Positions 18,001 to 50,098 of a stretch of 64,000 nt of DNA are shown here, piece after piece; position 1 is the stretch's first letter; every line of letters starts with the position of its first letter. The translations under genes were made by a program, and so were the position numbers. This stretch comes from Antedon mediterranea. Taxonomy: Eukaryota > Animalia > Echinodermata. The notes under the pieces are model-generated. The model worked only from the letters and a program-made list of their open reading frames with translations, was not told the origin of the DNA and made no database searches. The stretch lies in NCBI RefSeq assembly GCF_964355755.1, contig NC_092670.1:12944795-13008794 (forward strand), written 5' to 3'.

Positions 18001-18114
18001 AGGTGTAGGCGTAGTCTGCATTCCATTTTCAACGATTGAATTTTTGTCAATTTGTTCCTCTTGTTCTGTATCGCCATATTCAGCAGAAGTAAAATCAAGT
18101 TTATAGTCGGCCAT
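12069..18114 (-). CDS. Divergent SLCO/OATP organic anion transporter, about 672 aa; exons 18114..17406, 15527..15216, 14789..14619, 14345..14156, 13963..13846, 13341..13181, 12811..12747, 12361..12069
   Basis: OATP motifs [26 protein letters not shown]...PMYI, WWIGF, RLLQNP, FLPPFLE, the Kazal-like loop [18 protein letters not shown] and [14 protein letters not shown]. Exon phases add up; the exon-2 donor is the least certain. Confidence 0.88.
13439..13550. repeat. 20-bp tandem repeat (TATCGGGAAGAAGGAGATGG), about 5 copies, intronic
   Basis: Direct inspection. Confidence 0.85.
15790..17210. repeat. 30-bp minisatellite (GCCACGACTGGATGCCATYCAGACTTMAAA), about 47 copies, in the first coding intron of the SLCO gene
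   Basis: Head-to-tail units with no spacers; variant units recur in blocks. Confidence 0.97.
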
Positions 18115-20697: not shown

Positions 20698-22366
20698 AAC
20701 TAGATGGTACGCTCGCTTCGCTCGCGTACCATCTAGGTCGTGCCCACAGATGGTTCTCGAATACATAATAATTTCAGCGTTAAAAAACTGGCGATTTCAA
20801 ATGTACGTACCGCAGGACAATAATACATGTCGTTTACAGCCTACAGGAACGAATACATAGACACTGTAATTTATGTACTCAACTAAAATTAGCACCATGG
20901 GAATTACTTCCGAAAGAGAAACTTGTCACAAAATGAGACCAATTGTTTAAGTCAAATTTAAACAAACTTGATTTGTGTTTTGTATGTAACATTAGGGTTG
21001 AGGTATGGGGAAGAGGATGGGTGCAAAGAGGAACAATTTTTAAATATTATTCTTTATCCATTTAGTAACGAAATATTAATTGAACTTATTCAACCTTATG
21101 TTCCTAAGCGGTCTCTGAGATCTAGATCTGAGTCTCTTCTTGCCCATATATTTCATCCTTCCACTAAGTTTTATGGAAATCGTTCATTTTCTTCGGCATC
21201 CGTTTCTCTATGGAATGCGTTGCCTATTGAAATCCGTCAGGCTACTTCCACCAGTGTCTTCAAATCTCTCCTCAAAACCCACTTTTTAATTTGTAAATTT
21301 CTAAATTGTTCTGTCTTTGTAAAGCGCATTGAGGCTTTCAGCATAATGCGCTATATCAAGTACCAGTTATTATTATTATTATTATTATTATTATTGTTTT
21401 CATGTTTTACAAATAATATACCACTAAACACAGTAAAACATTGCGATGTAATACTTTGTTGAAACTATCACCGTCCTAGTCGATTGAAATAGTACAGTAG
21501 CCCCTACATGTAACGATACATCACTACGACGTGTATATGTTTATATAATGTAAAACAATTTGTGAAAACCACCTCTATTCGGGGAAAATCATAAATTCGA
21601 TTTAATCGTCAATAAATATTAAATTATCTAACTCAACTTAATTAGTAGGCCTAATGGTTTTCAATTGTTTCCTAGAGCCAATTCATACTTAAGTTGGTTC
21701 CTACCCTACCCACCAAAGTTGTTCTGCGTTTAGGGCATGTGATGTACCGTAGGCCTATCCTCTACTGGTTTTACAACGCTACTCATGCCAGTGAGGGAAG
21801 GGTGATGATGTGGGTGGTTTAACTGCAATAATAAAGATTTATACATAATATACGGCGAGTGAAAACGCTAGCTCTTTATCCGTTTAAAAAAAATGTATAT
21901 CCAACCTCTGCAGCACAGATTGAAAAAAAAATGGATCGAATTTCTGTTATGAGTATACAATACTTGCCTTTACGACGCCTGAGGGAATAGACACTTGTGG
22001 AACAGAGATTGGAATGTTCCATTCCTCGCAAATCAATACATTTGTATAATCGTATATTAAATCTATCAAAATAGTATTTTTTAAAGAAAATCGGCCTGTC
22101 TTCAACATTATGATGGTGTACTCAATTTGAAATTGGTCTTATTTTGTGACAAGTTTCTCTTTCGGAAGTAATAAGGTGCTAATTTTAGTTGAGTACATAA
22201 ATCACAGTGTCTATTTATTCGTTCCTGTACACGACATGTATTATTGTCCTGCGGTACGTACATTTGAAATCGCCAGTTTTTTAACGCTGAAATTATTATG
22301 TATTCGAGAACCATCTGTGGGCACGACCTAGATGGTACGCGAGCGAAGCGAGCATACCATCTAGTA
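20698..22366. mobile_element. Two inverted copies (about 20698-20945 on -, about 22130-22366 on +) of a Helentron/HINE-like 3' end
   Basis: About 240-bp near-identical reverse-complement blocks ending in CTAGATGGTACGCGAGCGAAGCGAGC(G/A)TACCATCTAGT; a fragment of the same family lies near 6025-6075. Confidence 0.6.
21078..21395 (+). mobile_element. L2/CR1-clade LINE 3' end fragment
   Basis: PYVPKRSLRS...GNRSFSSASVSLWNALPIEIRQATSTSVFKSLLKTHF followed by a (TTA)n tail. Confidence 0.8.
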
Positions 22367-22390
22367 TTTAACAATTACTGTATTGTTTAC

Positions 22391-25300
22391 CTTAGATAAT
22401 TTGATGTCAACTTCTTCAACTTCTTTCAGAGAATTCGTGTCGGCAACGAGTCTTCCAATGTTAGATAATACGGGTCTTGGTGGTGGGGTACAATCACTGA
22501 TGAAATAGAATTTGTGATATTGTTGGGCAAAAGGAGCATTTGGTATACACTTGCTACATAATTTTCAAAGATATAGGTATTTACCAATTACAAAGGATGA
22601 AAATGAGAATAAAAGAATGGTGGAAGATGAGGAAGAGAGAAGGAGGAGAAAGAGTAGGAAGAAGAACTATCACTTACCCATCCTCTTTTCGGAAACAGTC
22701 AATAAGGTTCCTGGCAGCAAATAATAAGGCTAGAATGTCTGGTTCTGAGAGGCTATACTCAATGTCATTCAGTTCTTGGATAGCCACATTTATTACCACT
22801 CTCGATCTAAATAATAAATCATTTCGTTTTGATGTCGTTATAGGTAGTTGTGACTTTCACCAGTCTGTTAAGTTAGCCCATATTACGTTCTTTTCTGATG
22901 TAAACATGGGAAAATATTCATCAAACCTTTAGAATAACCCCAGGTATAAACTTAACTGATATTATAACGGTATGAATTTAATTAGTTAAATGTGATAGTG
23001 AAACAAAGTTAGATTACTCTTGTTTGTCCGAAGCAGATTGCCATCTAAAGGTACACGTTTGTTTGATTAAACACTACTGTCTTAGTCTTAAAGAAGAACA
23101 AAAGTTTTTATTCAGAACTTACTGCATAATTAAAGAAGACCATACTGCATCAGCCGTTGACACGTGATAGTAAACCGTATGGAAGTAGGATGGCTTCTTA
23201 GGCAGGCTATGAATTTGGATTGGAAATATTACTGGGTTCTTCTCTGTGCGATGACGGCATAAGGCAATGTTGAAATCTTCAATACAATCATGTGACTCAA
23301 TGTAGTTCGGTGACACAAAGGTTACGATCTTCGTTGCGTTATCCAGCAGATGTCTCATCTCTTGCGCAGATGCAGCTTCTTCGACAACCGGGAGAGACGG
23401 CGCAAAGTATTTCATAAGCCCGTAGAAAAACTTTGCATACTTCTTGTCGTTAGAAGAAAAGCTTAAGACGATGTTATTGATTTCGTTTGCAGGTTTCAGC
23501 CGCTTGCTGTCGCGAAGGAATAGCAGGGTTGCTAACTTCCATTTTTTATGAAGATTGTGCATTTTGTGACAAAAGCACCAAATTTGGCACAAACCTTCTT
23601 TAGGGTATATCTAACAATCCTAGAAGGGGTGCCCAAAAATCGGAACAATTTAACGACGTCATTTGGACCACGCCCTTTTTTTAGTATTACGTAATTAGGA
23701 GAAAACTTACATTTCGTATATACATACCAAGTTTGGTATCAAATTAAAACTCATGACATGTACATTGCAATACACACATAAAAAATATATGATTTCTCTT
23801 CAGACGGAATATATAGGTCAAATAATGTAATTTTCTGTCATATTGAAGGGGATTTCAATCAAAACGCGCCAATATTGTGCTATGTTATGAACATTGTAGT
23901 TATAAGAACAACAACATTCATTTTTGTAATAGAACTACTAATATATATTTATCCTGTACCAGTTACCGTACTTTCCTTTAACATAATATTAGGAACCACT
24001 GAAAAAAAGTATATAAAACATATATATAAGTAAACAGACAAAAGACCATTTGACTGACAATTATGGCGTTAGCATCCATAACAATACATGGAGGTGATTA
24101 TCAACTTTACTTTTATGAAATTATTTATCTGGAATCAAACACTTATAATGGTACAGAGTTGCTAGATGACGAACAAGTTCCACGGCATGGGTAACAAAGA
24201 CCAGTGCAAGAAAGACCTGCTGAACGGCACTTGCAGTTCCCTGCAGCCACCCTTTAGCAATTCCCTACATGCTTTGGATGCTTCAGGTAGTATGGTCCAG
24301 ACTGGTGTCCATGTACTGCCAGTTTTAGTCCAACCAAAGTCTTCTGGTGATGGAGCATTCTGCTGTGGCTGTAGACTGGTGGTCCAATTGCTTGCTTGGT
24401 ATATGGATCTTTTGGAATGCTGTAAAAGTGCATCCTGCAATAAACAATTTAAAGATTGGTGTTACCTTTTAATGAAAGAAAAAAAATGAACCTGATAATA
24501 AATTATTAAACCACAATTGCTCCTCTTACCTGTGTAGGAGGAATGTTGTCCATTGTCCGTGCCTTTCTTAAAAAAGATCTTGTCTTAGCTTAGTAACACT
24601 TCTTAAAGTCTTGTAGTATAGATGACATGTAAACTCCTCTAGCAACTGGAATTGAGATGAGTTGACTCCTAGAGATTTGAAAAGGTGATGTGCCATGAAA
24701 AGAAAGGCTTCTGTGACTGCTGGAAATGAGTTCCACGTCTCCCATGCGGAGTGTTTTGCTTTTCCGAAGGGATGTACTGTAGTATCGGACCCAGTAAATG
24801 CATGAAAAACTGGCAGCTCTCTTAACTTATCCTCTCCTAGGTTATGGCAGATGGTATTTATATTAAAATATTGGAAGTGCTTACCCATGCCAAATGCGAC
24901 CCAGATACACGTACCAGGATAACAGGCTATTAGATTGCAGAAAATACCAACCAGGATAACAATGACATCAGTATCAACTGTACGCACCAAAATAACCCTG
25001 CTACCTTTTAATGCACATCCTGGAGTCGGCCTCTTCATGGTTGCAGATTGACATAGGTTGAGTAGATGTCCGGGATACATCAGACTCGCCTACAGGACAT
25101 ATATCAAGAATTACTTACTAATTTAATATGCCTTTTTAATTAATTATTGGTACGAAACTGTATAAGTAAATTAATCATTTGGTTACAAACAAAATAAATT
25201 AGTATGTATCATAATAAAACTTACCTGATGTAATGTAAACTTCTTTGCAGTCAGAGTAATCATGGGTAGACACCTTCGTAGTTAAAAAGTTAAATAACTC

Positions 25301-28300
25301 CTCTTTATTTACTGGATCTTTCAGAAAGTCTGGAAAATTCCATGGAATCTTTGTTTGTCCCCCAACTTTCCTCCTGACCCCTTTTCCTCTTTTTTTCTCT
25401 CTTGTAGACTGCTTAAGACTATCTGTTCTGTAAGTGTCCCACACTATATCAATTCTGTTACTATTCTGCAGCTGCTGTCTGGTCCACGGTAGAAAGACCT
25501 GTCATACAAATGATACAAGAATAATGATCCGCATATAGAAGTGACCAATTATGTGGTGGTTAAACAATAGATACAATCCTGAATGCAAAGAAATGTACTC
25601 ACCTTATCACCGTAGTCATAAAATGTAAATGCATGGTTGCTGGAAAGAGCATGGACAATAGCAGCTCCGTCAAACACCTTTACATCAAAATATGTAGGAG
25701 GTTCAGGCTGGCCTTCAGTCTCCAAATGCTGTAGCAAATCAGACTTCTTAGTTGGTAGTCGAAGCTTTCCATTTACTGCCAAAGAGGGTGGCCATGGCTG
25801 GTTTTAATGCATGAAGAAGTCTTCCAAATCTCCATCACGAGATTGACTTGCAATATACAGTCGACTGAATAGGCTGCAGTCACTTTTTAAACTCTTAACT
25901 TGTTGCTTTGTTTTGGACACTGATTTTTACCGTGGTGTGTTGAACAACGGCAGCTTATTCTGTTTGATGGCTTGTTGAATTGCAACACTTCTGTCGAGAA
26001 TAACTTCCTTGAAATATTTTTGGTACTGGGTAGTACCTACATCCTGAATTGTACGAACTGTCACTACTGGACTTTCATTGTCACAATCTCGAGCATCCAA
26101 GACCAGAAGTTCTGAACAATTATCGAGGAATGGGTTGCCTGCATTTGAAATTGTTTTGTGTAGCCTGTTGACCTGAACTTTAAATGTTTCTTGGGTAGAG
26201 AGTCCTTGTTCTCGTTGCTGAAAGTCATTCGGATCATAAACCATGAACTGACTCTCGAACTCTGTAATCAGTCTCGCTTGTTCTGGCTCCGCCACCATCC
26301 ACCTCTTAAACGCTGTTGGATTTTCTGTAAGTCCGACTGCACCCCCAGTTCCTTTTACTAATTCGTTGTTCTGCTCATGAGATTGGTCAATGGGCATACA
26401 GGAGAACTTTCTTGTTGTTTTTTAAATAACCCAGAACTTCTTAAAATCTTCTTTGATGTTTACAGGTAGTGTATTCATGTCCCTAATGTGGATGGGAATT
26501 GCCTTTTTGCTCAGGGAACTGCAAGTGCCGTTCAGCAGGTCTTTCTTGCACTGGTCTTTGTTACCCATGCCGTGGAACTTGTTCGTCATCTAGCAACTCT
26601 GTACCATTATAAGTGTTTGTTTCCAGATAAATAATTTCATAAAAGTAAAGTTGATAATCACCTCCATGTATTATTATGGATACTAACGCCATAATTGTCA
26701 GTCAAATAGATCTTTTGTCTGTTTACTTTGTCCAGTGATTATTTAGTCAAGTTTGATACAGTACGGTATATGTTTTATATACTTTTTTTCAGTGGTTCCT
26801 AATATTATGTTAAAGGAAAGTAACTGGTACAGGATAAATATATATTAGTAGTTTTATTACAAAAATGAATGTTGTGGTTCTTATAACTACTGTACAATGT
26901 TCATAACATAGCACAATATTGGCGCGTTTTGATTGAAATCCCCTTCAATATGACAGATAATTACATTATTTGACCTATATATTCCGTCTGAAGAGAAATC
27001 ATATATTTTGTATGTGTGTATTGCAATGTACATGTCATGAGTTTTAATTTGATACCAAACTTGGTATGTATATACGAAATTTAAGTTTTCTCCTAATTAC
27101 GTAATACTAAAAAAAGGGCGTGGTCCAAATGACGTCCTTAAATTGTTCCGATTTTTGGGCACCCCTTCTAGGATTGTTAGATATACCCTAAAGAAGGTTT
27201 GTGCCAAATTTGGTGCTTTTGTCACAAAGTGCACAAAAAAAGTGCTAAGTTACCCTGCTAGAAGAAGCTATCGAGATCTGGTGGGAAATCTGTGTAGGGC
27301 TTTCGCGATTTATCTGGGTAAGGTTTGCTTAATTGGAATGCTCGTAGGTCTTCTTGTACAATATCTATATTCTTCTCTGATGACTGCCAAAAAAATAAAA
27401 AAAGAATTCGTAAAACGGAGATAATCACATATACATAGTCGTACTTTTGTTTATAGCTCTTAACAAACTAAAACTTTTCAAATATATATTATTTTCATAC
27501 AATTTTTAAGTAATAGGAATCGTGTAAACTTTGTTTTCCCTAAAACTTTACATTTCCATCCAATGATTGGTCGATTCTATGGTGTATCTAATTAATGTGA
27601 TAGTGTGTCAAATTCCTAGATACATCGTGACATGTGACATTATTTATACCACCCATTATATATTGATGTCTGTGGCGGATATGAGACGCTGTATCACGGA
27701 ACTTTAAGATGTAGCATGCCTACACAGAATCAGGTTGGCCTATTACGGTTATTGTCTAAACCTAGTTCAGACTGACAAACTTTTCTTTGCAAATTCAAGC
27801 AACCTGCGAACAGTTTTGTTAGTGTAGACCAGTTGACAAACTTCGGTAAACTGCGGAAAACATGTTTGCAGAAGTCTACACTAGGACAATTTTGCAAACT
27901 AGAGAAAACTAAAATATGGTATGGTGTACTAGAGCAAAACAGATTCTAAATGGTATGCATTTTACCTTTGCAAATATTTCTTTAGTGTTTTTAGTAGACT
28001 CCTTGTTGAAATAAGAGACGATTGCATCTGCAGTAGATTCTATGGCAGACTTAAATGATTTACCAACAGCGTTCACCAACTTGATTTGTTTAAATTCTAA
28101 TGGAATATCCTGGACATCCTCATCCAAAAAGATCGGAATCAGTGTCAAATCTCGATTCTAAAAATTAAAATCACTATTATTAGTACGCAAGTATCTATTA
28201 TATAAAAGAACATATCCCAGAGGGGGATGCGGAGAAGAAGAAGAAAAAGGAGGAGTAAGAGAAGGTGGAAAATGAAGATAATGAGATAGAGGAGAAAATC

Positions 28301-31300
28301 GAAGAATAGAAAGATGAGATAAAAGAGGAAGAAAAGGAGAAGAAAGAGAAAGGGGAGTAAGAGAAGGTGGAAAAGGAAGATAATGAGATAGAAGAGAAAA
28401 ACGAAGAAGAGAAAGATGAGATGAAAGAGGAAGAAAATTAGGAAAGGAGGAGTAAGAGAAGGTGGAAAAGAAAGGTAATGAGATAGAGGAGAAAAAAGGT
28501 GAAGAGAAGGATGAGATAAAAGAAGATATAGAGGAGAAAAATGAGGAAAATTAGGAGAAAGAGAATGAAAGGGAGGAGTAAGAGAAGGAGAAAAACAAAG
28601 AAGAGGAGGATGCGATAAAGAGGATATAGAGGAAGAAAATAAGAAATAGGAGAAAGAGAAGGAAAAGGAGGAGTAAGAGAATGTGGAAAAGGAAGATAAT
28701 GAGATAGAGGAGAAAATCTAAGAAGAGGAGGATGCAATAAAAGAGGATATAGAGGAAGACAATGAAGAATACTAGGAGAAGACAGAGAAGGAAAAGAAGG
28801 AGAATAAAGAAGCTGAGGATGATGAGGAGTGGAAAGAGGCCTGCAGACGAAGAAATATCAAGATAATAAGGAAAATGACGGACGAAGGAGCAAGAGATAG
28901 AGAAAGAAGGATGTGGAAGAGCTAACTGAATCTGTACGTGTACCCAATCACTTCTATTCTAAATATTACTGAATTCTATCTATATTTGATATTATTAATA
29001 AACATACCTTTTGAGAATGTTTTGCAAGCGCCAAGTTAAACTCTTCTCTGCAAACAGGTGACTTCAGATAATCTTTGGTTACCATTGCAACTAGCATCGT
29101 GCTGCCATCTATGGCATGGTATAAAGTCTGTTGCCAAGTAGTTCCTATAAATGTGATATTATTAATTTATTTTAATTACGCAAATAAATGGCACTGTTCT
29201 ATTCCATTACTTGTTGTATTACGTCATATTAAATTTTCAATGTTTAAATGTAATTATGTTGTCTGACGTCATATTATAGCTTCACGTGATGAAAGGTCTG
29301 AAATGGTTGAAATAATTATGAATGATGTACCGGTCTTAAGCTCTTGTGTGTCGAAAAAGACCTTCAGATTTTGGTCGAGCTTGGTCAAGATTTCTCTGAG
29401 CTGGGCAGCTTGCTCGGTGTTACGATGGCAGTACGAGATAAAGACGTCATACTCCAGTGTAGGGTGTTCATGTATCTCTGCATGTACGTCAACATTTAAC
29501 GTCAACGCAAGTTGCTCACAAGCATGGCTAATCTTCACTCTTCTGTAAATAACAACAAAATATGTATTGTTAATCACAGCGATAGAAAAGTATTCATTAG
29601 TATCTCGCTATCATATAAAACCTGCCAGTATACATACACCTATATTGTATGTACTGTATCTTAACATGTTCAGTTTGTTAGGAAAGTTTCTTGATACACA
29701 GGGCCGGGGCATGTTTATCACGTGTGACACTGTGTTTAGGAATTTGTATTATGACAACAAACAAACATGGCATTGCACATAATACTATATGTATAAATCT
29801 TTGTTTTTTATTTACTTACAAACAATCAATATATTGTACGAGTCCCATGTATGTTGGCATTTTCTGCACTTGTTCAATATAGAACGGAGCAAGTAGATCT
29901 CGTCGAGCCTTCCTGTTGCAGCATAATGCTATGTTGTACTGTTCGACACATGGTGTTGATTTTAGGTAACTGGGGCTTAGTACTGGAGAAAAACAAGAAA
30001 TTAAAAAAAAATGTATTTGCGATTTTACGAAAATGTAAAAGTGTTTTAGTCAAAAGCTTTTGGAAGTGTTGTTTGTGCGCGGAGAATTGACAGGAAAAAT
30101 CGATAATTAAATTAATTTTTCTTTAAATATTTATATAAATTATGAAAAGTTTTTCGTGGGAATTAGAGAACATGTATTTGGACAAAACAATGTACTTATG
30201 TTTTGAAATACGAAGATATAATTTCGTTCCTTTTATCGACCTCATAAGTATTATTATTTAATTTGCATGCCAATTTGCATCAAGCATACTACATGTGCGT
30301 GTTTGTGCATGTTCATTGTGGTAGTGTATGATGCAGCCACTTATTTGTTTGTGTTGGATTACCTTGCTTATTTGGTGTATATAATTAGAAGAAGTATTAC
30401 ATAAAGGAACTGATATACCATATTAATGTAATTCGTTATGTGCGTATGTAAGCGAGAAGGACAAGATAATGCTTTTGTAAAGTTCTACCGGCGCGCTCCA
30501 TCACATACTATTTTGTTTCACTGGATTTACTTTTTGGATATATACAAAATATGGAGAACAGAAGAACATCATTTGTCTTATTTCCTCTTTGTTTTCTGAG
30601 TTAACTGAAGCAACTATTGAATGGATTATTAAGTAAGGTAGGTGCAGTTATTTTTTAGTTAGTGTGTATTGTCAAGAAAATGTATCTCAATCGGCAATGC
30701 TTAGGAAAAACCAGTCGTGTTTTAATATGGCGTTTATTGTCGCGAGTAATTTACGTTAGCATTTGCGAGTAGAGAACTGGCGGAGCCTGGTTTGGATTGG
30801 TCGGTTAAAAATAATGAAGAGTAGGCCTATATTTTGGAAGTATCCATACACAGACACATAACAAAATATTTAATATTTGTTACAAAGTACTAACAGTGCA
30901 ATGGTCTGTGCAATATAGGAGGTTTTGTCGATGTAGGCTTATTTCGCATGACGGTATCAAACTGTTTTCGAATTCGGCGGGCACCCAAATACAATTGAAT
31001 TTAAATGCCTTTATTTTGTACGTTTTGTACCGGTACTGTTCAATCATCTAAGCATTTATAATAAAGTTAGGCCTACCTGTGATGACCCTAGCACACCTGA
31101 TCATGACTTCATACATGTCTTCCTGCCATACTTGGTCTTCTTTCAGCTCTTGCTGACTGCCAAAGATGCGAATATCGGGCTTAACAACTGCCAAGTGTTT
31201 GCTAATAGAACTCGCAGTTTCTCCATCCTCCTTGCTAAATGACAGGTATACATCAAACTCTATCTTCACTTTCTAAAATCAATGACGTCATAAGTAAAAT

Positions 31301-33290
31301 ATTTGTGCTAATATCTTTCTAATTACAATTGCTTTCCACTATTTCATTACTGTCATTTACAGGGTGTTTTCTATTAGTATTATTTTTACTTTTCCTATTT
31401 GTTGAGGCCTTCCTCTCGACCGTCTTACGTTTCTGTTTAATCAGTTTAGTGCAATCAAACACAATTGCTATACAATGAAAACACGAACACTAAAATGGAT
31501 GGACACATATACAAATAAAATGCAATCTTTCCTCAAAAAGTAATTAAAAAAAAAAATTGAAATATTTAGTTATTGCCGTAACAAAAACGCGTTTTTCTTA
31601 GACTTTACAGTACCTTTGGTATAACACTTTTCATGTCAAACTTCATCTTCAATTCTTTAAACTGTTCACACACTTCTTCAAGGCCTCTCATAGGTGGAGG
31701 ATCACCGGCTTCAAAGCAAGCGTAGAGCACAATCTTTAGCTTGCGGAGTGGCAGCCCTGCTTTCATCCAGTTTACGGCTGCCTCTACCATTCCTTTTAAC
31801 ATTAGCACTTTACTTCGTCCCTGATAAAAGTAGAAACAACTTGTGTTTTATGATATATTAATGACGTCTCATATGAAGTAGAATTGTCTTCATTTCCAAA
31901 GTACCCGTCTTTAAAAAAAAAGAAATAGGAGCAGAGAGGACCCATGATCACTCCTGCCAAGCAGAACAGGAATGACGATTCCTTTCCTCTGGCCCTCTAC
32001 ATCCTCTCTTTATTTCTGTATTTTACCAACTAAATTCCCTTCCCTTGATAGAAAAGTCCAAATTAGTTCTTGATGTTCACCACACCCTATCAACACACTA
32101 GTAGCACCATCGGTATTGTTTAAAACGTAATACGATTTCTATTTTACCTGGTCACCTGTGTTCAGCAGAGGTGTAATGACTGTGCCATCCTGGTTGTTAA
32201 GAACTGGAACCAAACAACGATATACGTCCGCAACAAGTTCCTGTGGTTTAGATTTCCCGTGACTTAAATAAATGATTTAACCATCGTTAGATAATTATGC
32301 TTCAAGCTCACATGGTACATCTGTGCCGTATAATTATGTACACAGTACATTGTATTTATATACAATATACATACTTGGCCTACTTGGGGGTATCTATTTG
32401 TTTCGTACTGAATAATTAGGCCTACGTCTTTTTGTTTTACCGAATGCATCCTAAGTAGGCTATATTTGAATGAATAAATTGAAATTAAAACTCACTATCT
32501 GGTCTCAAAGCAAAGAAGCCGTCTGTATGGCAAATGATCCGGTAGTGGATGGGACCACCAGCATGAGTAGAGGTTGCGAAGATCTTCTGCTTTATTTTTT
32601 GCCAGTTCTCTGACGTTTAGATTTAAGTTTCGCTTCAGAGCACCAATAACTGAGGTCGGTGTTGCTAAATAATCGCCTAACATATAAAATATGGGATTAA
32701 CAGAATTAGAAGAATTAGAATTCGCCTACACTTTCAATACCTCATTATTACAGTGTTTACATACAGTATTTTTTATTGAGCCTATCCCGATCGAGTTAAT
32801 GCCTTTTTTGAATTAAAAATATTTTTCTCATAAAGTAACCATGTCTTTCAAGATGTGCTTTTTTTTGTCGTCATAGGCCTACTTTTGTTGTGACACTTTT
32901 CATGTCAAAACTTTTTTAATCAAACTTAAATTTCCAGAGAGAGGCATAAAAACAATGTAATAGGAATACAATGAGTGCTGCAAAATAAACGAACATTCAC
33001 AGAAGTATGACATCACAATACAAATAGATACACTTATTAGAACATCAGATCAGAGAACGAGAACATTGCCAAATAATGTCATCGTAGTACCAGTAGGCCT
33101 GCATTTCTACATGAGCTAGGCCTACGCTAGATGCTATAACTAACATACCTCTGAATGCTGAAATCATTATCACGTCTACTTTATCTTGTTGTTCAAGTTT
33201 AGTGATGTCCCCAAAACATAAATCGATCTCACAACTGCCATTTTGCGTTATAACGGTTATTGTATCGGAGACAACAAATCCAGCAACCAT
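22391..33290 (-). CDS. Macro-TIR-TIR-TIR gene, copy A, interrupted in exon 10 by an Academ element (predicted 556-aa Macro-TIR-TIR product, or pseudogene); exons 33290..33149, 32676..32496, 32262..32148, 31820..31614, 31272..31077, 29982..29820, 29542..29331, 29144..29008, 28157..27966, 27383..27261 + 23517..23123, 22806..22678, 22496..22391; possible terminal exon 20146..20126
   Basis: Exon-by-exon paralog of copy B with the same intron phases. Macro-like LCFGDITKL..VDVIMISAF..TPLLNTGDQG; TIR starts FDVYLSFS, YDVFISYCH, NIVLSFS. Confidence 0.85.
23521..27260 (-). mobile_element. AcademX-type DNA transposon, internally deleted and rearranged, degenerate transposase
   Basis: Termini TAGCAGGGT...ACCCTGCTA; 3-bp TSD GAA (23518-23520, 27261-27263); about 720-bp inverted arms. 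ORF remnants PIDQSHEQNN..KGTGGAVGLTEN..RW, DGAAIVH, VRTVDTDV, FHAFTGSDT (XPG-like), QDALLQHSKR..YQA..W and a Cys-rich tail. Confidence 0.9.
28225..28920. repeat. Purine-rich (GA) low-complexity intronic tract with internal duplications
   Basis: Recurrent GGAGTAAGAGAAGGTGGAAAA...GATAATGAGATAGAGGAGAAAA blocks. Confidence 0.85.
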
Positions 33291-34544
33291 GTTGATAGGA
33301 CCTAATGATTAAACAATACGTGTTCAAACTTTAGCTTGCTTGAAACAAATTCTTGAAGTATTTTTCTGTCTTTACCAAGACAGTTCCTGGTCACAAGTAC
33401 TTAAAGTTCCAATATTAAGAATGACGATAAATCGAATCGTTTTATGACTAAGAAAGTGGATTAATTCCGAGGTCATCCCGGTCAATTCTTTCCTAGAATG
33501 TAGGCCTAAGTTCTTATTTCACAAGTTTAAAGCAACTTTAAGGAAAGTTGATGTATTCCTACATAGGAGCCTATGCGTTATCGGATATGAATTGCTAAAC
33601 GGTCTTCCTGTTATATGACAGGAGGAAGGAAGAAATAACATATCATGGCAATTAAGGTATCCCAATAGCTTGTATATTACCTTGATAGCTACCTTATATA
33701 GTAGGCTATCCACGTATTCAAAATTGTAGAGAGATATATAACACGTTTGTTAAAGTAAATGTTTTTAGACGTGTTGTGTTTGTATGCCCATATATGTTTG
33801 ATTAAATACACCAATACCTATTAGAGTTGAATCCGTAGCCGCGGCACGCTTATGTGTGACAAGTTGAAAGCCTCTCGTAGTAGTGCGCTTATAACCGCGC
33901 TTATTACAAAGTTGCATTGCGTTATTGTCAGTCAACACGTAGGCCTATGACACCCATACTTAGTGGCATTTGAAAGCATTGGTCTAATGCGCCTTATGCG
34001 TTATTGTCAAGCCGCTATGAGGCCTACCTATATGGCTATGCCTACGCCTGTCAAACATGCATTTAATTTGGAATATTCATATTATATCTATCTAAACACA
34101 ATACAAATATAAATACCTAAATATAAATTATATCAAGCATTGCGAACAAAGAATTAAAATAATCACCAAACCTACCGCAAGACTAGATTGTTTAGTTTTA
34201 TCCGCATGAACTGATTTAAATAATAGGAATGGTTTCAATGCAAGGATGAACTTATTGACCCGAAATAAAGAAATCGATTTGGTATATTTAATGTATGTGA
34301 GTAAGGACGCGATATAATGAGAATCATCATTTATGGCGATGACTAATAATTCATTAAAAAAAATTGATGGCGCGTATTACGTATACTGTAGGCCTATTAA
34401 TATTATACTTGCTTTGCATGACGAGAACACTAAAAGGCCGTGTTTTAGCAGCCAAAAATTAACCGATAATTTTATTTTGGCTGCGGAAACACAGCCATAG
34501 CAAAATGAATATTGCTTACTTGTGATCGCATGGCTATTCTGAAT

Positions 34545-35390
34545 TAAATTCCATGGTTATCCCGAATTCCATGGTTATCCTGGAATCGATGGTTTTATAC
34601 ATGTATTCCATTCTACGGTTATACTGCATTAAATCCTTTTTTCATGGTTATCCTTGATTATTGTTATCCTGTTTCCATGGTTATCGTTTAATACATGATC
34701 AATATCCTGGATTCCATGGTTATCTGTTTCTATAGGCCTACGTGTCTTCCATGGTTATCCTATGATCGTGCATTCTATTGTTGAGTATTATTTCCAATAT
34801 TATGATTGAAAAAAGATTCTATCGTGATCCTGGATGCCATGGTGATCCTGGATGCCATGGTGATCCTGAATTCCATGGTTATCCTGGATGCCATGGTGAT
34901 CCTAGATGCCATGGTTATCCTGGATGCCATGGTGATCCTGAATTCTATCGTGATCCTGGATGCCATGGTGATCCTGAATACTATGGTTATCCTGGATGCC
35001 ATGGTGATCCTGAATACTATGGTTATCCTGGATGCCATGGTGATCCTGAATTCCATGGTTATCCTAGATGCCATGGTTATCCTCATGCCATGGTGATCCT
35101 GAATTCTATCGTGATCCTGGATGCCATGGTGATCCTGAATTCCATGGTTATCCTAGATGCCATGGTTATCCTGGATGCCATGGTCCTGAATTCCATGGTT
35201 ATCGGGATGCCATAGTGATCCTGAATGCCATGGTGATCCTAAATTCCATGGTTATTGGGATGCCATGGTGATTCTAAATGGCATGGTTATCGGGGTGCCA
35301 TGGTGATCCTGAATTCCATGGTTATCCTGGAGGTTATCCTGGATGCCATCCATGGTGATCCTGAATTCCTGGTTTCATGGATGTCATGGT
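34545..35390. repeat. 18-bp minisatellite (CCATGGTKATCCTGGATG / CCATGGTGATCCTGAATT), degenerate at its left edge
   Basis: Direct inspection. Confidence 0.9.
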
Positions 35391-35709
35391 GATTATGCCG
35401 AATCCCATTTTGGGGATTATGCCGAATCCCATTTTGGGGATTATGCCGAATCCCATTTTGGGGATTATGCCGAATTCCATTTTGGGGATTATGCCGAATC
35501 CCATTTTGGGGATTATGCCGAATCCCATTTTGGGGATTATGCCGAATCCCATTTTGGGGATTATGCCGAATTCCATTTTGGGGATTATGCCGAATTCCAT
35601 TTTGGGGATTATGCCGAATCCCATTTTGGGGATTATGCCGAATTCCATTTTGGGGATTATGCCGAATCCCATTTGGGGGATTATGCCGAATCCCATTTTG
35701 GGGATTATG
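35390..35709. repeat. 24-bp minisatellite (GATTATGCCGAATYCCATTTTGGG), about 13 copies
   Basis: Direct inspection; 8-residue periodicity in the spurious ORFs (GDYAESHF). Confidence 0.9.
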
Positions 35710-36906
35710 TTCTATATTTAGTAGTTTTATTTATGTTAATAAATATTCATGGTTGGCTGTCAGAAGATCAACACGCTCATATTCCATGAGTTGTCTTTAA
35801 TTGGAGACAGACATCTACAATTACTTTCTATTTTTAAGGTTCTATAGTGCATTTATTAATAGGAAAACAATTCACAATGTACGTTACATGACTAACCTGG
35901 TCCCAAAAGGTCTTTAATTAGAGGTAGACTTCTTAGGTATCAATATTGTCATTATTATAAAAACAATTGTGCAGCATTGGCAGGAAACACAGAATGATTG
36001 ATAGTAAAAATAAAATAATAATTATACTGTATATAACAATTCAAGTACTAAGTAGGCCTACAGTAAAGTTAAAACGTCTAAAAAATAAAAGTTTTTACAT
36101 TTTATATAAAATCTATATCATATTAAAAATATTTACAATAAATATCAGAGGTTTGCAACAAATAGATAAAATTTGTTGATGTATAGATAGATAAAATAAA
36201 ATTAGTTGAGGTATATATTAAAAAATCCGCTATTTGATAGAGTAGAAAAAAATAAATAACCCGCAGCAACGTCACTAAATTTGTTTCCACTATAAACGCT
36301 TATCATTCCTCTCTGGCTATTTACTAATTATTACATTTTGATACTATCTTTTCAATTTAAACTACGATCTAGTTCATGTTTAATACCCAAAGACTGTTAC
36401 TGTCAAAGTAAAATATCAAATTTAAATATGATCACCTAAAGGTATGATATATATTACTGTACACATATTTCGATTACTTATCTAGTGTGCAGATAACAAA
36501 AATGTTTCCACACACATTAATGCACATTACAAAGATTGTACTGTTGTAATCATGACACATTATTATTATTGAGGGTATCTTAGCCAAGGATTTTTCTTTA
36601 AAGTATAATTTTGAATGTTTAAGTGAAATTTTTATTTTTGGTTTCGATCTTCTATCGAATTGTGAAAATGCTTTATTGTTTTATTATGTACAACAATTTC
36701 TTGTTAATTCTGGAAGATTTGATTGATGTTTCAGTTGATTTTTTGTTTTAAAATGTTATATTTGTTAATCTAAGACGCCTTGAAGCTAAGGTGGTTCCAC
36801 CTTGTAAGGCGCCTCTGTGTAATATACTGAATAAAAAAAAAAATCATGACATAGAATTGAACCCAAGAGCCTGGGGGATTCGACAGTATTACCGCAAAAT
36901 TGCTCA

Positions 36907-39900
36907 TTATAAGAAGAGGCACATTTTCGTTTTTTTGTCACCAGGAGGTGTACTATTTGTGTTGTGTACATCAGGTGTTTTCATGTCGTTGTCAGGTTTT
37001 TTCACATCGTCATCAGGTGTTTTCACATCATCATCAGGTGTTTTCACATCGTTTTCTAATTTCTTTGGTGAAGCTTCTTCATTGCTTTCTCCTCCTTGCA
37101 CTTCTGTATTCTTTCCCAAAGTTTCTTCAGGAAGACTTGCATTGACTTCAGTTTTCATATTCCCATTCTCATTCAGATCCAATTTTTCTTCATCTTCCGG
37201 TTCCTTTAACTCGGTAATCATACTTTCATCCTTCTTTATGTCCTTTTTATCGTTTTCTTCATTCAAAATTTCTTCTGGTTTTAAGTCTTCCTCAGATATC
37301 TCAACTTGTATCAGCATCTGATTGAAAGAAAGTATACTAGTTAAAAATGTAACTTTCTTCCAAAACAATTAACTGAAAATAATACTATTTATATTTCCAA
37401 CCCTTTAATTTTTCTGAAGTACAGTGTTACATATGTATCACATGTGAGAGCTGTATCATAGCATTACACTGGAAAAATTATGCCATATGTGGAGACTTCG
37501 AGTGAAAGTCTACAACCTTCCAAGTGGGTTTCTTAGTAAGCAAATTCAAGGCCTACCTGTGTTAGATTTTTAACACCAAGATCAGTTGCTTTATTCAGTT
37601 CTTTTGTGTCAATGATGAGCCTACCGATGTTGGACAAGACAGGTCTTGGTGGTGAGGTGCAAGTACTATTACTACAAACAAAAACACCCATAATTGATTA
37701 GAGTAACATTAAAGGAAAAATTATCTTTATCTTCTGGGATTTTAAACCTGTCTTAGCACACAAACTTATAACACATAAATAAAATGTAGTAGATGTAGTT
37801 TGGATGAAATCTAAGAATCAGCTTATCAGGGTGTATTTGTACCTTTGTGAAATAAACAAGTCTGTAACAATATCTGTACTAGACAATAAGTTAACGTACC
37901 TTTCGTTGCGGAAGCTGTCAACAAGTTTCCTGGCAGCAAATAGTAAAGCTAATATTTCAGAATTTGACACACTGAGGTTCATTTCTACAATGGACTCATG
38001 TATGGTGACCCTATTTCTGAAAAAAAAGAAAATGAAATTTAAAAAATTGTGTTACAATTTTATGTGGTAAAGAAGATGGGTTTCTAAACAATTCCTAAAA
38101 GATGATTAACATTTGAGACTTATATTGTATACATGTATAGTCTTTATTTTTGTGGTAGTAGGTAAATGACATTACTTACTTGTTTGTTAGAGTATACCAA
38201 ACTTTGTCTGTTGTAGCAACGTTGTAGTACACGGCATGAAAGTATGTTGGCTTCATAGGCAGCTCATGAACCTGTATTGGAAATATCACAGGGCTTTTTT
38301 GTGTACGATGGCGACATAACGCAATGTTAAAATCTTCAGCGCAGTCGTGTGACTCAGTATAGGTCGGCGAGACAAACGTCACAATTTTAGTTGCACTGTC
38401 TAGAAGACCTCTCATCTCTTGTGCAGATTTTACTTCACCAACCACTGACAAAGATGGTGCAAGGAATTTCAGAAGTCTGGTGAAAGATACAGCATATTTG
38501 TTATCATTCTTTGCAAAGCTTAAGACAATGTCACAGGTTTTCTCTTCGTCGGAAGCTTCAGGATGGGTGTAATTCTTAAGAAAGAAGCTATCAAGATCTG
38601 GTGGAAAGCTCTTGTAGGATATTCTGGTGTTGTCTGGGTACTTGACAGACAACTGAGATTCTCGTAAATGTTCTTGTACGCCATCCATTGTCATGCTGTC
38701 TACAGACTGAAAGAAAAGATTTGCTTTTATATAACTTTTAAAAGGGTTCAGTATGCCATTTAAGATATCCAAAAGAATGTGTTGTTTTCGATAATTACCT
38801 CTGTGAAAAGTTCCTTCAAGCTTTCAGTGGAATGATTTTGTAGGTATGAGACAATTGCCTTTGCAGTAGATTGGATTGCAGGTAAAAACGCTTTACCAGA
38901 TGCATTCACCAACTTAATTAGTTTAAACTCCAATGGAATGTCTTTGACGTTTTCATCCAGAAAAATTGGAACCAGTGTTAGTTCTCTATTCTGTGTGTGA
39001 AAAATCCAGTAGTTACATAATAAAATAAATTAATTATTCGTCAGTCACCAAATGATGTCTCACAGTATTTTTACGGTTGTTGAACAAGTCAACCTAATGG
39101 TGTGGCTGGAATGCAAAGAAATATCTCTTATATCTCATATTAAAATGTGGTGAACACCAACAGATTTTTGCAGGTCTACTGTTATGTATATGAATATTTT
39201 TAAACTACCTTTTGAGAATGCTTATCGAGTGCCAAATTGAACTCTTCTCTGCAAACTGGTGACTTCAAATATTCTTTTGTTACCAAGGCAACTAGAACTT
39301 TGCTCCCATCAATAGCATGATATAACGTTTGTTGCCACGAAGTGCCTAGAAATTAAACAAATTTGAAATGCTTACACATTTTGTTTACTATGTTTATTAA
39401 ACTTGGGGTTTGGAAAAAGTTGAAATTACCTGTCTTAAGCTCTTGTGTGTCAAAGAACACCTTTAAACTTGGATCAAGAAGGGTAATACTTTCTCTGAGC
39501 TGCGAGGCTTGTTTGGTATTACGATGACAGTATGATATAAAGACGTCATATTCCAGTGTTGGATGTTCTTGTATTTCAGCATGTATTTTAACGTTTAGTG
39601 TCAATACCAGCTGTTCACATGCAATGTCTAAATTTATGTTACTAAAATTGATAAAGATAAATATTTTTAAATTAAACACTACCTTTGAAATATATATTGG
39701 AGAACATGGAAAATGGCCAAAATAGTAGGTTTCTGCCATTGGCTAAAAGTAAAAAATCTAATCTCCTTTTCTTTCCATGCAAAACTCTGTTTAAAAAAAA
39801 AAATATTATTCTTGCACGCCCATAGAAGTTGGCAAGTTTCCTATACTTGATTTTTTTCTCATAAACTTATATTTAGGCTTTATTGTATATGGGCAGACAT

Positions 39901-42900
39901 GCATTTTTTTTATAGATTAGTTTCCACTAAGGTCTTTGCATCATTTTCTGTAGCACCAGTCACGTAACTTACTGTTACTAAGGGTCTTTCACACCTGTTC
40001 CGACATGGTTTGGATCCGGCGCCGGAAAATTTGATTTCATGACGCTCCACGCGGCTATGCGCATATTGATTGGTGCATAGCCGCGTGGAGCGTCAGAATA
40101 TCAAATTTTTAAATGAAAACAAAACATTAACGTTCGATTTGCCGGTCCAGCACCATGCCAGAGCAGGTGCGAAAGATCCTCTATTGTGTACACTTACAGG
40201 CAATCTATATACTGTACCAGCCCCATGTAAGTCGGCATATTCTCAATCTGCTCGATATAAAATGGAGCCAGTAGTTCTCTCTGAGACTTCCTGTTGCAAC
40301 ATAATGCTATGTTGTATTGCTCAACACATGATGTTGAGTTTAAATAACTAGGACTGAGAACTGAAATAAAAAATGTATGATTTAGGTTAAAAATACCATC
40401 AACGTACACAGGCTCTATGATGGCCATAATATTATCCTTAAATGAATTTCCAAGCATATTTCATTCACACAACTTTATTTACTATACTGTTTTGTGTAAG
40501 TTTACATAATTTAATAAATTACAGCTATTTTTATGAATTACAGCTAATTTTATTTGTGTGTAGAAAAAAAAAAAATACATTGACAAATATGATTTGTTTA
40601 GGGATAAGATGAAAGGTGTTTGGTCTCTGGTAAATGTTATTATTATCTGTCTCCTGACCACAATATAGTGATTCTATTCTATAAAATATTGTACTTTGCA
40701 CACTCAAATCCTAATATGTCCTACAATAAATTGAAGTTAGGCCTACCTGTTATTACCCTAGCACACCTAATCATGACTTCATACATGTCTTCCTGCCACA
40801 CTTCATTGCTGTTCAGTTCTTGCTGACTGCCAAAGATGCGAATGTCAGGCTTACAAGCTTGCAGGTGTGTGCGAATGGAGCTTGCAGTATTTTCATCCTG
40901 CTTGCTAACTGATAGGTAAACATCGTACTCAATCTTCACATTCTAAAAGAAGTTATAAATTAAAAGAAATAATTTGGAGAATGATGTTTAAAGTTAAAGT
41001 TCAAGCTTTCTATAAACAATATATATTAACCTTTGGTACAACACTCTTCATGTCATATTTGTTCTTCAGTTCATTGAACTTTGCACATATATCTTTAAAC
41101 CCTCCCATTGGTGGAGGGCTACCTTCTTCAAATCTGACATAGAGCACGATCTTTAGCTTGCGTAGTGGGAGTCCAGCTTTCATCCAGTTTACAGCCGCGT
41201 TCACCATTCCTTTTAACATTATTACTTTATCATGTCCCTGAAGAAAGAGAAATTGATAAAAATGAGAAAAACACATAACATAGCTAATGGCTGAAAGATG
41301 ACTTGAGACGACTTGTGTTTTTAATTCCAAGCATTTAGTCAATATTATTTATTGGAAGAATTTCATCTGGTTGTGGAATAGGTATTACATAAAATTTCTT
41401 TTTGAACAACCAAAAATAGTATAAGCGAACTTACAGTACGTTTCGAAACCTATCAGGTTTCATTCTAAACTGGCGTTTCATCGTCTAGCGTTGTTAATCC
41501 CATGATGATGACGTCATTTTTTTTTGGTTGTTCAAAAAGAAATTTTATGTAATATTATTTATGTTTCCTTACTTGGTCACCCGTGGTCAGCATAGGTGTA
41601 ATAACTGTGCCATCTTGGTTGTTTAGAACGGGAACCAAACAACGAAACACGTCTCCAACAAGCTTCTGAGGTTGTGATCCTCCAAGCCTAAACAATAACA
41701 AATTAGTGTTGTATTCATAGTATAAAGAAGAGTCTCAGCTTAAAATTGGTACCTTTCCAACCACAAAAACTAATATTGCTTTGATGTGGCTTACAAACCT
41801 GCACACCATTGGTGGTATATATGGCTATACTGCGTTGAAACACCGGTTCTCATCAGATCACCAAAGTTGGGCCCGGTTGCGTTCTGGATGGGAGACCGTC
41901 TAGAAATCGCGGCGGGTGCTGTATATACTGGAGAGTAATGGTAATATCGGACTAGCATGTGATAGGCATGGGTTCGAGGTTATCTGTACCATACTAATTG
42001 TATCTTTAGGCAAGATGCTTTACTGTCATTGCCTCGTCCTTCGGATGGGATGTAAAGCCGTTGGTCCCGTGTACTTAACAGTGCATGTTAAAGAACTTGG
42101 TACACTATTCGAAAAGAGTAGGGGATCGTCTCCCGGTGTGCTGATCTGGTAGGCGCTGCACTGCTGGCTGCCGTGGGTCCGTAGAGGGCCTAATCCGAAT
42201 CTCCTAATTTTCCAGTTAAGCTTGAGGACTAAGATAATTACCTTTACCTTTACCTTGTTTTAAAAACAGTGGTAGATTCAGGATTTAAACAATTTTAAGG
42301 CCAACCTCCTAACAATTGAAATTTGAGAACCAAGCCTAGTGCTTTATATCTTAAAGTTTCAACAATAAGGCCCTCCAATCCCATTTGATTTGGCTGAAAA
42401 GGAACTTGCCTTATTTCTGTCTCAAAGCACAGAAGTCGCTTATAAGGCAAAGTAGCAGGCAGCTCATGAGACCACCAGCATGAGTACAGGTTACGAAGAT
42501 CTTCTGCTTTATTTCGCGCCAGTTCTCTAACATTTAAACCCAGGTTCCGCTGCAATGCTCCGATGACCGATGTTGGTGTCGCAGAATAGTCGCCTATATT
42601 GGAAAAGATTATTTTCATCAATCAAACATTTAAAAGTTGGTCTTTATTTTTTTTGGAATAAGATTATTTGTATAATACAATTAATATTCAGCCTTTTTAA
42701 TTTGTGGTTTGTTGGTTTCAGATGGCAAAGACCATCTTTTGGATGGGACATAAAGACATTGGTCCCGTGTACGATTGGGATGGGTGTCTGCCTGGCCCAT
42801 GGATCATTATATAGTGATGGATGGTTGTTGATGTTTTGTGAACACGTGCAGATGTTTCTTATCCTCTACTGCATTTATAGTGATTTTCGGAATAATTTAT

Positions 42901-43046
42901 GTACCTCTAAACGCTGATATCAGTATCACATCAACCTTATCTTGATAGTGAAGTTTAGTGATGTCCCCAAAACACAATTGGATTTCACAATTTCCATTCT
43001 GTGTTACCACAGTGATAGTCTCATGGACAACAAATCCAGCAACCAT
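36907..43046 (-). CDS. Macro-TIR-TIR-TIR protein with acidic tail and C-terminal CaaX, copy B, intact, about 905 aa; exons 43046..42905, 42593..42410, 41687..41573, 41237..41031, 40942..40747, 40360..40198, 39641..39430, 39345..39209, 38990..38799, 38706..38180, 38016..37900, 37671..37557, 37317..36907
   Basis: Exon lengths sum to 2718 nt in consistent phase. Macro-like N-terminus (GDITKL, VDVILISAF, TPMLTTGDQG). Three TIRs: YDVYLSVS..SPSYLNSTSCVEQY; YDVFISYCH..FFDTQELKTG..YLKSPVCREEF; DIVLSFA..SPTYTESHDCAEDF. Ends KKTKMCLFL*. Confidence 0.88.
39981..40179. mobile_element. Palindromic MITE (PIF/Harbinger-like termini) in an intron of copy B
   Basis: Imperfect TIR GGTCTTTCACACCTG...CAGGTGCGAAAGATCC and a perfect inner IR TGACGCTCCACGCGGCTATGC/GCATAGCCGCGTGGAGCGTCA. 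Confidence 0.65.
41385..41553. repeat. Short inverted-repeat element (33-bp arms ATTACATAAAATTTCTTTTTGAACAACCAAAAA)
   Basis: Perfect reverse-complement arms around a core of about 100 bp. Confidence 0.7.
41815..42255 (+). mobile_element. SINE3: 5S rRNA-derived head, degenerate tRNA-like segment, Deu/Nin-like core, (CCTTTA)n tail
   Basis: GCGTTGAAACACCGGTTCTCATCAGATCACCAAAGTT...GGATGGGAGACCG...GGGTGCTGTA resembles 5S with an internal deletion. It is followed by CCTTCGGATGGGATGTAAAGCCGTTGGTCCC...CGAAAAGAGTAGGGG. Confidence 0.75.
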
Positions 43047-49904: not shown

Positions 49905-50098
49905 TGTCTTTTCCACTGCTGAAAACCAACATTAAATCCAATAATCTTTTCAATTTCCACTTAAAACTAAGATTAAATTCAACCATCTTTCCCATTTCCA
50001 CTTAAAACCAACATTAAATCCAACAATCTTTGCCATTTCCACTTAAAACCAAAATTAAATCCAATCATCTTTACATTTCCACTGAAAACCAGCATTAA
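49905..50098. repeat. About 41-bp degenerate tandem repeat (TTTCCACTTAAAACCAACATTAAATCCAAC...), about 5 copies
   Basis: Direct inspection. Confidence 0.75.

Follow-up and report, generated by a model that had tools for sequence, protein, structure and literature searches.

Comparison with the closest described systems

Passages of PMC11204291 and 10.64898/2025.12.03.692087 describe type II Thoeris as a two-gene system in which the macrodomain of ThsA is fused to a transmembrane (TM) pore and the TIR protein ThsB acts upstream. The DNA that we analyzed (the window) is a stretch of 64,000 nucleotides from the echinoderm Antedon mediterranea (contig NC_092670.1, positions 12,944,795 to 13,008,794). 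It carries two paralogous genes, copy B (XP_071958782.1) and copy A (XP_071958716.1), that encode Macro-TIR-TIR-TIR proteins. As in type II Thoeris, a macrodomain and a TIR belong to one system, and nicotinamide adenine dinucleotide (NAD+)/ADP-ribose (ADPR) chemistry is expected. In contrast, the Antedon protein and its bacterial Macro-TIR relatives are each a single polypeptide, without a TM segment and without a conserved partner. The original prediction, made from the sequence of the window, had linked these genes specifically to type II Thoeris, and we found no support for this link. The ThsA_Macro model (PF20016) had no match in either Antedon protein at E ≤ 1 and matched 1 of 38 homologs, at E 0.012. 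EcThsA ranked 40th with the animal structural model and 50th with the bacterial one (Z 11.6 to 12.1, versus 15 to 17 for PARP9/14), far below PARP9/14 and macroH2A. A ThsA_Macro search of five host genomes gave no match, with the controls equally blank, and is hence uninformative. We concluded from sequence and predicted structure that the Macro-TIR family is not type II Thoeris, because neither of the two architectural features, a ThsA_Macro domain and a TM-effector fusion with a separate ThsB, is present.

Sensor-gated TIRs share one architecture in bacteria and invertebrates, and assembly is expected to activate them. TIR-STING (bacterial and oyster), TIR-SAVED, Cat1, and SARM1 resemble the Antedon proteins in joining a nucleotide-binding module to a TIR that bears the Glu. 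In the Antedon architecture, in contrast, the sensor is an N-terminal macrodomain, there is no cyclase partner, and the TIR is triplicated, with one predicted catalytic copy and a predicted CaaX anchor. By analogy, the nearest functional parallels of the family may be TIR-STING and TIR-SAVED, from which its sensor would differ, a comparison to which we give slightly less than an even chance. We tentatively favor, again just short of even confidence, a macro-gated, membrane-anchored TIR NADase in which the macrodomain would be a ligand-sensing switch and which likely came from a single-gene bacterial defense protein.

The closest solved folds to the macrodomain are those of the PARP9/PARP14/PARP15 and macroH2A readers, and the GD motif and the phosphate-loop Gly of these readers are kept. 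Unlike them, the Antedon macrodomain (12 to 17% identity) has replaced NAAN and Gly-rich loops, carries a Glu at the VGP position, and has a TIR rather than an ADP-ribosyltransferase as its partner. NAAN and GGGV loops are the motifs of MacroD-type hydrolases, and Macro-TIR proteins differ from those enzymes in having neither.

Passages of PMC6321704 and PMC5549309 describe ecTIR-DC proteins, with reference to Gerdol 2017, as conserved invertebrate cytosolic TIR proteins that are absent in vertebrates and whose function is unknown; the passages on ecTIR-DC mention no macrodomain, CaaX, or bacterial relative. The three-TIR family may be among the entries of the ecTIR-DC catalog. In the literature that we searched, no Macro-TIR fusion family is described; the supplementary TIR tables of two preprints (10.64898/2026.04.20.719644 and 10.64898/2025.12.03.692087) may list members. 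The word "macro" is absent from the main text of the former, the 2026 animal TIR preprint. In passages of the TIR atlas PMC13142454, "macro" opens two words, both unrelated, and passages of PMC8195603 and PMC7159879 do not describe the family.

Copy B and copy A are spliced and belong to a conserved family

In three-frame displays of the window, copy B and copy A appear as minus-strand multi-exon paralogs. A single-exon protein search returned two A. mediterranea entries labeled "uncharacterized protein," XP_071958782.1 at 100% identity and XP_071958716.1 at 64% identity, and the two multi-exon paralogs first proposed from the sequence match these entries. Copy B is 71% identical to copy A across 86% of XP_071958782.1, and its order is Macro-TIR-TIR-TIR, helical region, acidic tail, and CaaX. 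The coding features are as follows.

36907..43046, minus strand: copy B gene, 13 coding exons, 905 amino acids (XP_071958782.1)
41031..43046, minus strand: copy B exons 1 to 4, divergent macrodomain (amino acids 1 to about 210)
about 42423-42421, minus strand: invariant Glu105 of the copy B macrodomain
39600..40942, minus strand: copy B TIR1 (amino acids 219-352), Gln296 at the catalytic Glu position, predicted inactive
38830..39560, minus strand: copy B TIR2 (amino acids 364-503), full catalytic set, predicted NADase
about 39244-39242, minus strand: copy B TIR2 Glu441
38179..38706, minus strand: copy B exon 10, degenerate TIR3 (amino acids 571-690), Asp641 at the catalytic position
36907..37317, minus strand: copy B last exon, low-confidence acidic tail, then basic residues and the CaaX box
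36921-36910, minus strand: copy B CaaX box (predicted prenylation signal)
20126..33290, minus strand: copy A gene, 13 coding exons, 772 amino acids in the insertion-free allele (XP_071958716.1, a RefSeq model without CaaX)
20126..20146, minus strand: copy A last coding exon

The original prediction had placed both genes within 22391..43046. The exons in that range are real, but copy B runs on through the acidic tail to the CaaX box, the last coding exon of copy A lies beyond the range, and the TIR3 exon of copy A is interrupted. We found GT-AG at the inspected exon flanks of both genes, with the exception of a GC donor after copy B exon 2 (42410, minus strand), where copy A has GT.

Splicing, which had been predicted, was seen for both copies in contigs of run X1 that carry exons end to end. 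A 1,571-nucleotide contig joins copy B exons, for example 38990-38799 directly to 38706-38180, and a 1,248-nucleotide contig joins copy A exons 23520-23123, 22806-22678, and 22496-22391. Run X1 is presumed to be RNA (the tool's guess, backed by the exon-to-exon contigs, none of the listed runs being recorded as RNA) and comes from a different study than the other four runs; contig depths are unsuited to ranking expression. Pfam found three TIR_2 stretches in each protein, as had been predicted, and at E ≤ 1 it found no LRR, SAM, NACHT, or Macro model in either, leaving the first 215 residues blank. No TM-like segment was found in the sequence or the structural model. We concluded that copy A and copy B are real spliced genes of a conserved, uncharacterized family.

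Three other explanations of the genes were rejected. A pseudogene or chance reading was ruled out by the spliced contigs and the conserved family, bacterial contamination by the introns and the placement in the animal clade, and a dead copy A by the insertion-free spliced allele. A third Antedon paralog (P0016) was among the proteins matched by the macrodomain-region search.

The N-terminal domain is a predicted macrodomain with an unusual pocket

All of the motifs quoted in the original prediction for the macrodomain and TIRs are present in the sequence. We modeled the copy B protein with AlphaFold2 from a 41-sequence alignment (mean predicted local distance difference test score [pLDDT], 77.9; predicted template modeling score [pTM], 0.57; residues 781-905 disordered). 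The macro fold that had been expected was recovered by Foldseek, with macroH2A1.1 (E 2e-6) and PARP14 as top matches, and by VIA-align with residues about 5-210, with PARP9 macro 2 at Z 15.6 (root mean square deviation 3.0, 183 residues aligned). The other VIA-align scores were 15.2 for PARP14, 14.7 for macroH2A, 11.8 for DarTG, 11.6 for EcThsA, and 11.1 for MacroD1/2. A bacterial Macro-TIR model (pLDDT 92, pTM 0.85) gave Z 17.4 for PARP14, 17.3 for macroH2A, and 12.1 for EcThsA, and a profile of the macrodomain matched PARP14 at E 3.3e-5. Judged by these models, the N-terminal domain is a macrodomain, nearer to the reader class than to ThsA. Pfam, PADLOC, and NCBIfam gave it no name, and a viral fold search with the macrodomain returned generic macrodomains only. 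In the ESM Atlas, a similar predicted fold occurs in a cluster with DUF4145 in place of the TIR (score <0.9), a lead only, which is as expected for a swappable sensor.

The GD(I/L) adenine-pocket motif and the phosphate-loop Gly are retained: G27, D28, and G145 are present in 65/67, 58/67, and 62/67 animal sequences and in 72/74, 69/74, and 74/74 prokaryotic sequences. As first noted for Antedon, the pocket loops are altered, and we found that the NAAN and GGGV loops are replaced by SAF (SAF..Y) and PTxS/T- or PTP-type loops in animals and bacteria alike. The Ser, Trp, Glu, and Gly of these unusual loops are invariant in 43 sequences recovered without a motif search. Glu105, at a position outside the scan patterns, is found in 67/67 animal and 74/74 prokaryotic sequences and aligns with the Gly of the conserved VGP motif of PARP14. 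We take this strand end to face the distal ribose and to be the position that bears the catalytic Lys in TARG1 and DarG. A module that only binds, as originally proposed, is not established, because the pocket carries this invariant Glu.

Of the three TIRs, TIR2 keeps the full catalytic set

According to 10.64898/2026.04.20.719644, a Glu on helix alphaC marks the enzymatic (NADase) class of TIRs. We found this catalytic Glu in TIR2 of 72 of 74 proteins (the other 2 are gaps), with F, S, Y (FxSY), D, W, and C kept as well. The TIRs of bacterial Macro-TIR proteins have the Glu in 68/68 and F, S, Y, D, W, and C in 67 to 68 of 68. In contrast, TIR1 has Gln at the catalytic position in 55/74 proteins and Glu in 4/74, and TIR3 has Glu in 66/74 but has lost the rest of the set. 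The TIRs of Mucochytrium show the same TIR1/TIR2/TIR3 pattern by eye. The original prediction had implied three equivalent TIRs; on sequence, the full catalytic set is kept in TIR2 only.

A bacterial TIR profile scored animal TIR1 and TIR2 at medians of 116 and 107 bits (63/70 proteins with three TIRs), and it scored nine unrelated neighboring TIRs at 20 to 68 bits, with three split Macro-TIR gene pieces set aside. With the full profile, TIR2 of XP_071958782.1 scored 110 bits, versus ≤56.5 for any TIR in the PDB.

A Cys lies fourth from the C terminus in 42 of 71 macro-plus-three-TIR members and in 33 of the 38 of at least 850 amino acids, against a background Cys frequency of 2.5%; the members are kin, and so these counts are not independent. 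The last residue is Leu in 26 of the 42, and a flexible basic tail lies upstream of the Cys. The CaaX box, a predicted prenylation signal, is thus conserved.

In three sea urchin isoform models (P0017, P0019, and P0020), TIR1 is missing its second half and TIR2 its first half, so that a single hybrid TIR with the Glu of TIR2 remains.

A single-gene Macro-TIR form is widespread in prokaryotes

The fusion had been presented as an animal innovation, with a proposed bacterial connection. We found the connection but not the innovation: a Macro-TIR unit with the same odd loops is common in prokaryotes. A HMMER search of 1.84 billion representatives gave 840 proteins at E ≤ 0.001, and the details given here come from the best 150 of the 840. 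Among the matches listed, the non-animal proteins are mostly about 340 amino acids long and about 40 to 47% identical to the Antedon protein in the macrodomain. The 108 listed proteins that we scanned have mostly one C-terminal TIR_2. A TIR follows the macrodomain in 88 of the 104 listed presumed prokaryotic representatives with a full macrodomain (one or two of which group with eukaryotes in the tree), and most of the remaining 16 stop soon after the macrodomain. Longer fusions among the matches listed carry Hsp70, kinase, second TIR, FHA, CHAT, or type VI secretion system (T6SS) sheath domains. Recurrent among them are fusions to Hsp70 (P0067, P0074, P0099, and P0110) and to the type VI sheath proteins VipA/VipB (P0108, P0144, P0148, and P0151).

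Of 216 candidate stretches in a genome scan, 107 were confirmed, and the 80 loci that we retained come from 11 named bacterial and 2 archaeal phyla. The profile of the animal family matched that of the bacterial family with a probability of 100 (E 4.5e-67, 196 columns). PADLOC and NCBIfam had no whole-protein match for prokaryotic Macro-TIR proteins and matched the TIR part only.

Clustering of 931 open reading frames (ORFs) from the 80 loci revealed no conserved partner gene, with no partner in more than 9 loci. We scanned 115 of 142 first-neighbor ORFs (those left out were mostly short ORFs and near duplicates; one of the 115 was Macro-TIR itself). Conflict-type families, by our own classification, occurred in 19 of 114 first neighbors, from 13 of 71 loci. 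The families counted were SIR2, STAND, SLATT, TPR-S, CHAT, Schlafen, TIR, subtilase, DUF6361, DUF4357, DUF6884, DUF4062, Uma2, and T5orf172, and several of these neighbors were also matched by PADLOC. In a distant control of 115 ORFs, drawn at random from the 193 that lie 5 kb or more away, 5 to 6 were conflict type (Fisher P, 0.002 to 0.006, versus first neighbors), in statistics for which some loci are kin and the ORF caller is crude. The defense-island context, which the original prediction had named as a thing to check, thus shows as a modest excess, but with conflict neighbors at 13 of 71 loci only.

Small neighbor groups were seen in which Macro-TIR lies beside TPR-S/MAP3K-TRAF-binding genes (L061, L071, and L079), SIR2-STAND genes (L007 and L026), SLATT genes (L018 and L022), or STAND plus subtilase genes (L065). 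These are candidate multi-gene systems. The member on a Promethearchaeota (Asgard) contig (L064) is either truncated or macro-only, and in the tree it falls beside a cyanobacterial sequence rather than among eukaryotes.

Distribution in eukaryotes and origin

A search with the N-terminal region gave 52 proteins from 571 candidates, and an alignment search gave 83 from 7,990 scored. Each of the five echinoderm classes is represented among the named members, as are hemichordates, Owenia, two nemerteans, Lingula, bivalves, gastropods, Macrostomum, Nematostella, and Rhopilema. None of the named matches is from a chordate, arthropod, or nematode, in word-indexed searches that cannot demonstrate absence. 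The thraustochytrid Mucochytrium quahogii has a macrodomain and three TIRs, and a Pavlovales haptophyte has a macrodomain and two TIRs, the second cut short. The three-TIR form thus spans cnidarians, spiralians, echinoderms, and hemichordates plus one thraustochytrid. Echinoderms have tandem paralogs, and the animal family is low copy. Databases label the members "uncharacterized," "TIR domain-containing," or with automatic enzyme names.

We built an unrooted IQ-TREE macrodomain tree of 65 rows, a subset of a 226-row FastTree tree with long rows P0066 and P0158 left out. One branch parts 27 eukaryotic from 38 prokaryotic rows (Shimodaira-Hasegawa-like approximate likelihood ratio test support, 97), a second has 24 animal-like rows on one side (support, 80), and the animal family in it roughly tracks phyla. 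No bacterial sister group was found in this tree. We infer that the unit entered once from bacteria and that its TIR was then triplicated, because the one-TIR form is widely spread in prokaryotes, because the bacterial TIR profile scores animal TIR1 and TIR2 far above unrelated TIRs, and because the full profile scores TIR2 of XP_071958782.1 above any TIR in the PDB. The three-TIR form in a thraustochytrid means that the triplication predates animals or moved between eukaryotes.

Proposed mechanism and alternatives

If the protein is a macro-gated, membrane-anchored TIR NADase, infection-made ADPR, an ADPR derivative, or an ADP-ribosylated protein would bind the macrodomain. Ligand binding would then free or cluster the Macro-TIR1 unit. 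TIR1, which lacks the catalytic Glu yet is very near the bacterial TIR, would be a regulatory or nucleating TIR. TIR2, in which the catalytic residues are seen, would assemble and cleave NAD+, leading to NAD+ depletion or a cyclic ADPR (cADPR)-type signal, and the CaaX motif, if prenylated, would anchor the long isoforms on a membrane. The overall logic would run from sensor to effector as in TIR-STING and TIR-SAVED, with ADPR as the input. Because no conserved partner was found in the 80 loci, sensor and effector would share one protein, and with no fixed partner, no TM effector, and no second sensor, macro input and TIR output would make the simplest self-contained circuit. Consistently with this, the fold is closest to the ADPR-binding PARP9, PARP14, and macroH2A in both the animal and bacterial models, and the pTM of 0.85 for the bacterial two-domain model fits a defined domain arrangement.

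Several observations weigh against this reading. In fold, the TIRs are nearest to scaffold TIRs (MAL/TIRAP, Hydra TRR-2, and MyD88), Asp replaces Glu in TIR3 of both Antedon copies, and the copy A RefSeq model has no CaaX. By Pfam, 58 of the 71 bacterial loci have no conflict-type first neighbor, and several of the positive loci are close kin. Of the 61 animal TIRs with the Glu that 10.64898/2026.04.20.719644 reports on, 12 showed activity in Escherichia coli. Lastly, the invariant Glu105 could make the macrodomain an enzyme instead of a sensor. Such a Glu, where the VGP motif of PARP14 has Gly, would suit a writer with a built-in reader or eraser, close to the original prediction, in which infection triggers the TIR in some other way and the macrodomain binds or hydrolyzes the TIR's own ADPR-type product in feedback or self-limitation. 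A passage of PMC9503650, whose likely source is Burroughs and Aravind 2020, says that, in TIR anti-phage systems, a regulatory role through cADPR targeting is predicted for the Macro domains. The SLATT, SIR2, or TPR-S neighbors at a few bacterial loci are potential signal receivers. We nevertheless consider this arrangement rather unlikely: a conserved downstream effector is absent across the 80 bacterial loci, most members have no other sensor domain, and the structural ranking places noncatalytic reader macrodomains above DarG and MacroD.

The scaffold-like folds, together with the degenerate TIR1 and TIR3, the conserved CaaX anchor, and the inactivity of the majority of the Glu-bearing animal TIRs assayed in that preprint, would fit a nonenzymatic membrane adaptor. 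Here, a prenylated triple TIR would nucleate TIR-TIR assemblies like TIRAP/MAL, and the macrodomain would dock on ADP-ribosylated proteins. However, in animals as far apart as cnidarians, molluscs, and echinoderms, TIR2 keeps all of the catalytic-site residues that the bacterial TIR has, and TIR1 has lost them, a pattern that suggests selection on the active site. In addition, the relative in bacteria stands alone with an intact catalytic site, and we think the adaptor unlikely. A housekeeping role in NAD+/ADPR metabolism or stress sensing, with no pathogen link, appears very unlikely to us. Ordinary genes do surround most bacterial loci, and the animal family is low copy with a tree that roughly follows phyla. 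In contrast, the patchy spread over many phyla, the changing neighbors, the enrichment of conflict genes, the domain fusions (Hsp70, kinase, CHAT, and T6SS sheath), and the tandem paralogs in echinoderms all speak against such a role.

A polymorphic transposon in copy A and the surroundings of the two genes

The TIR3 exon of copy A is split by an inserted element, and the window sequence has a stop codon at the junction.

23521..27260, no strand assigned: DNA transposon in the copy A TIR3 exon, 3,740 bp, polymorphic

Terminal inverted repeats with arms of about 700 bp mark the element, its target site is duplicated over 3 bp, and its transposase-like ORFs are broken. We presumptively call it Academ-like from its ends and ORF motifs, a label for which no Pfam or paper support was found. 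An X1 contig passes from 23520 straight to 27264, which is the exact empty site, and XP_071958716.1 reads across the site in the same way. Since both are insertion free, the insertion is polymorphic and the intact allele is spliced. The original prediction had missed the transposon and its absence from another allele, as it had the TIR2-only catalytic set, the invariant macrodomain Glu, and the conserved CaaX.

A second element with inverted arms lies in the last intron of copy A (20682-22382) and is high copy in all four runs. At 58614-60884 (plus strand) are frameshifted transposase-like ORFs with motifs resembling those of the copy A insertion; Pfam did not match them, and tblastx did not match them to the insertion. 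Minisatellites of 18 and 24 bp lie between copies A and B, and a purine-rich repeat lies in a copy A intron (34760-35780 and 28200-28950, respectively). Just upstream of copy B (45678-54275, minus strand) are two tandem paralogous genes with a ZU5 exon each (Pfam E 2.4e-6, below the cutoff). In both, the N-terminal exon is long and of low complexity, and the C-terminal exon is death-domain-like by eye. They make an immune gene cluster possible. OATP/SLCO transporter exons occupy 12069-18147 (minus strand), with an intronic 24-bp tandem array at about 15700-17200.

Implications for the Macro-TIR family

The Macro-TIR family was hidden because its sensor domain falls below the Pfam, PADLOC, and NCBIfam cutoffs. 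It is a candidate for the short list of immune modules common to bacteria and animals, with cGAS-STING, gasdermin, SIR2, and SARM1-type TIR. In a broader scenario that we regard as possible but doubtful, an undescribed single-gene bacterial defense protein, which would sense ADP-ribosylation or ADPR derivatives via a new macrodomain class and so trigger a TIR NADase, entered eukaryotes once. Its TIR would then have triplicated into regulatory, catalytic, and scaffold copies and a lipid anchor would have been gained, with the protein still serving as an ADPR pattern-recognition receptor from cnidarians to echinoderms. The cross-kingdom identity of about 40 to 47% and the 340-amino-acid single-gene bacterial form make the family directly testable. 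The conserved, unusual macrodomain pocket may indicate a new ADPR-type ligand and, if the proposed mechanism is true, the family would provide a route by which ADPR could feed TIR signaling in animals.

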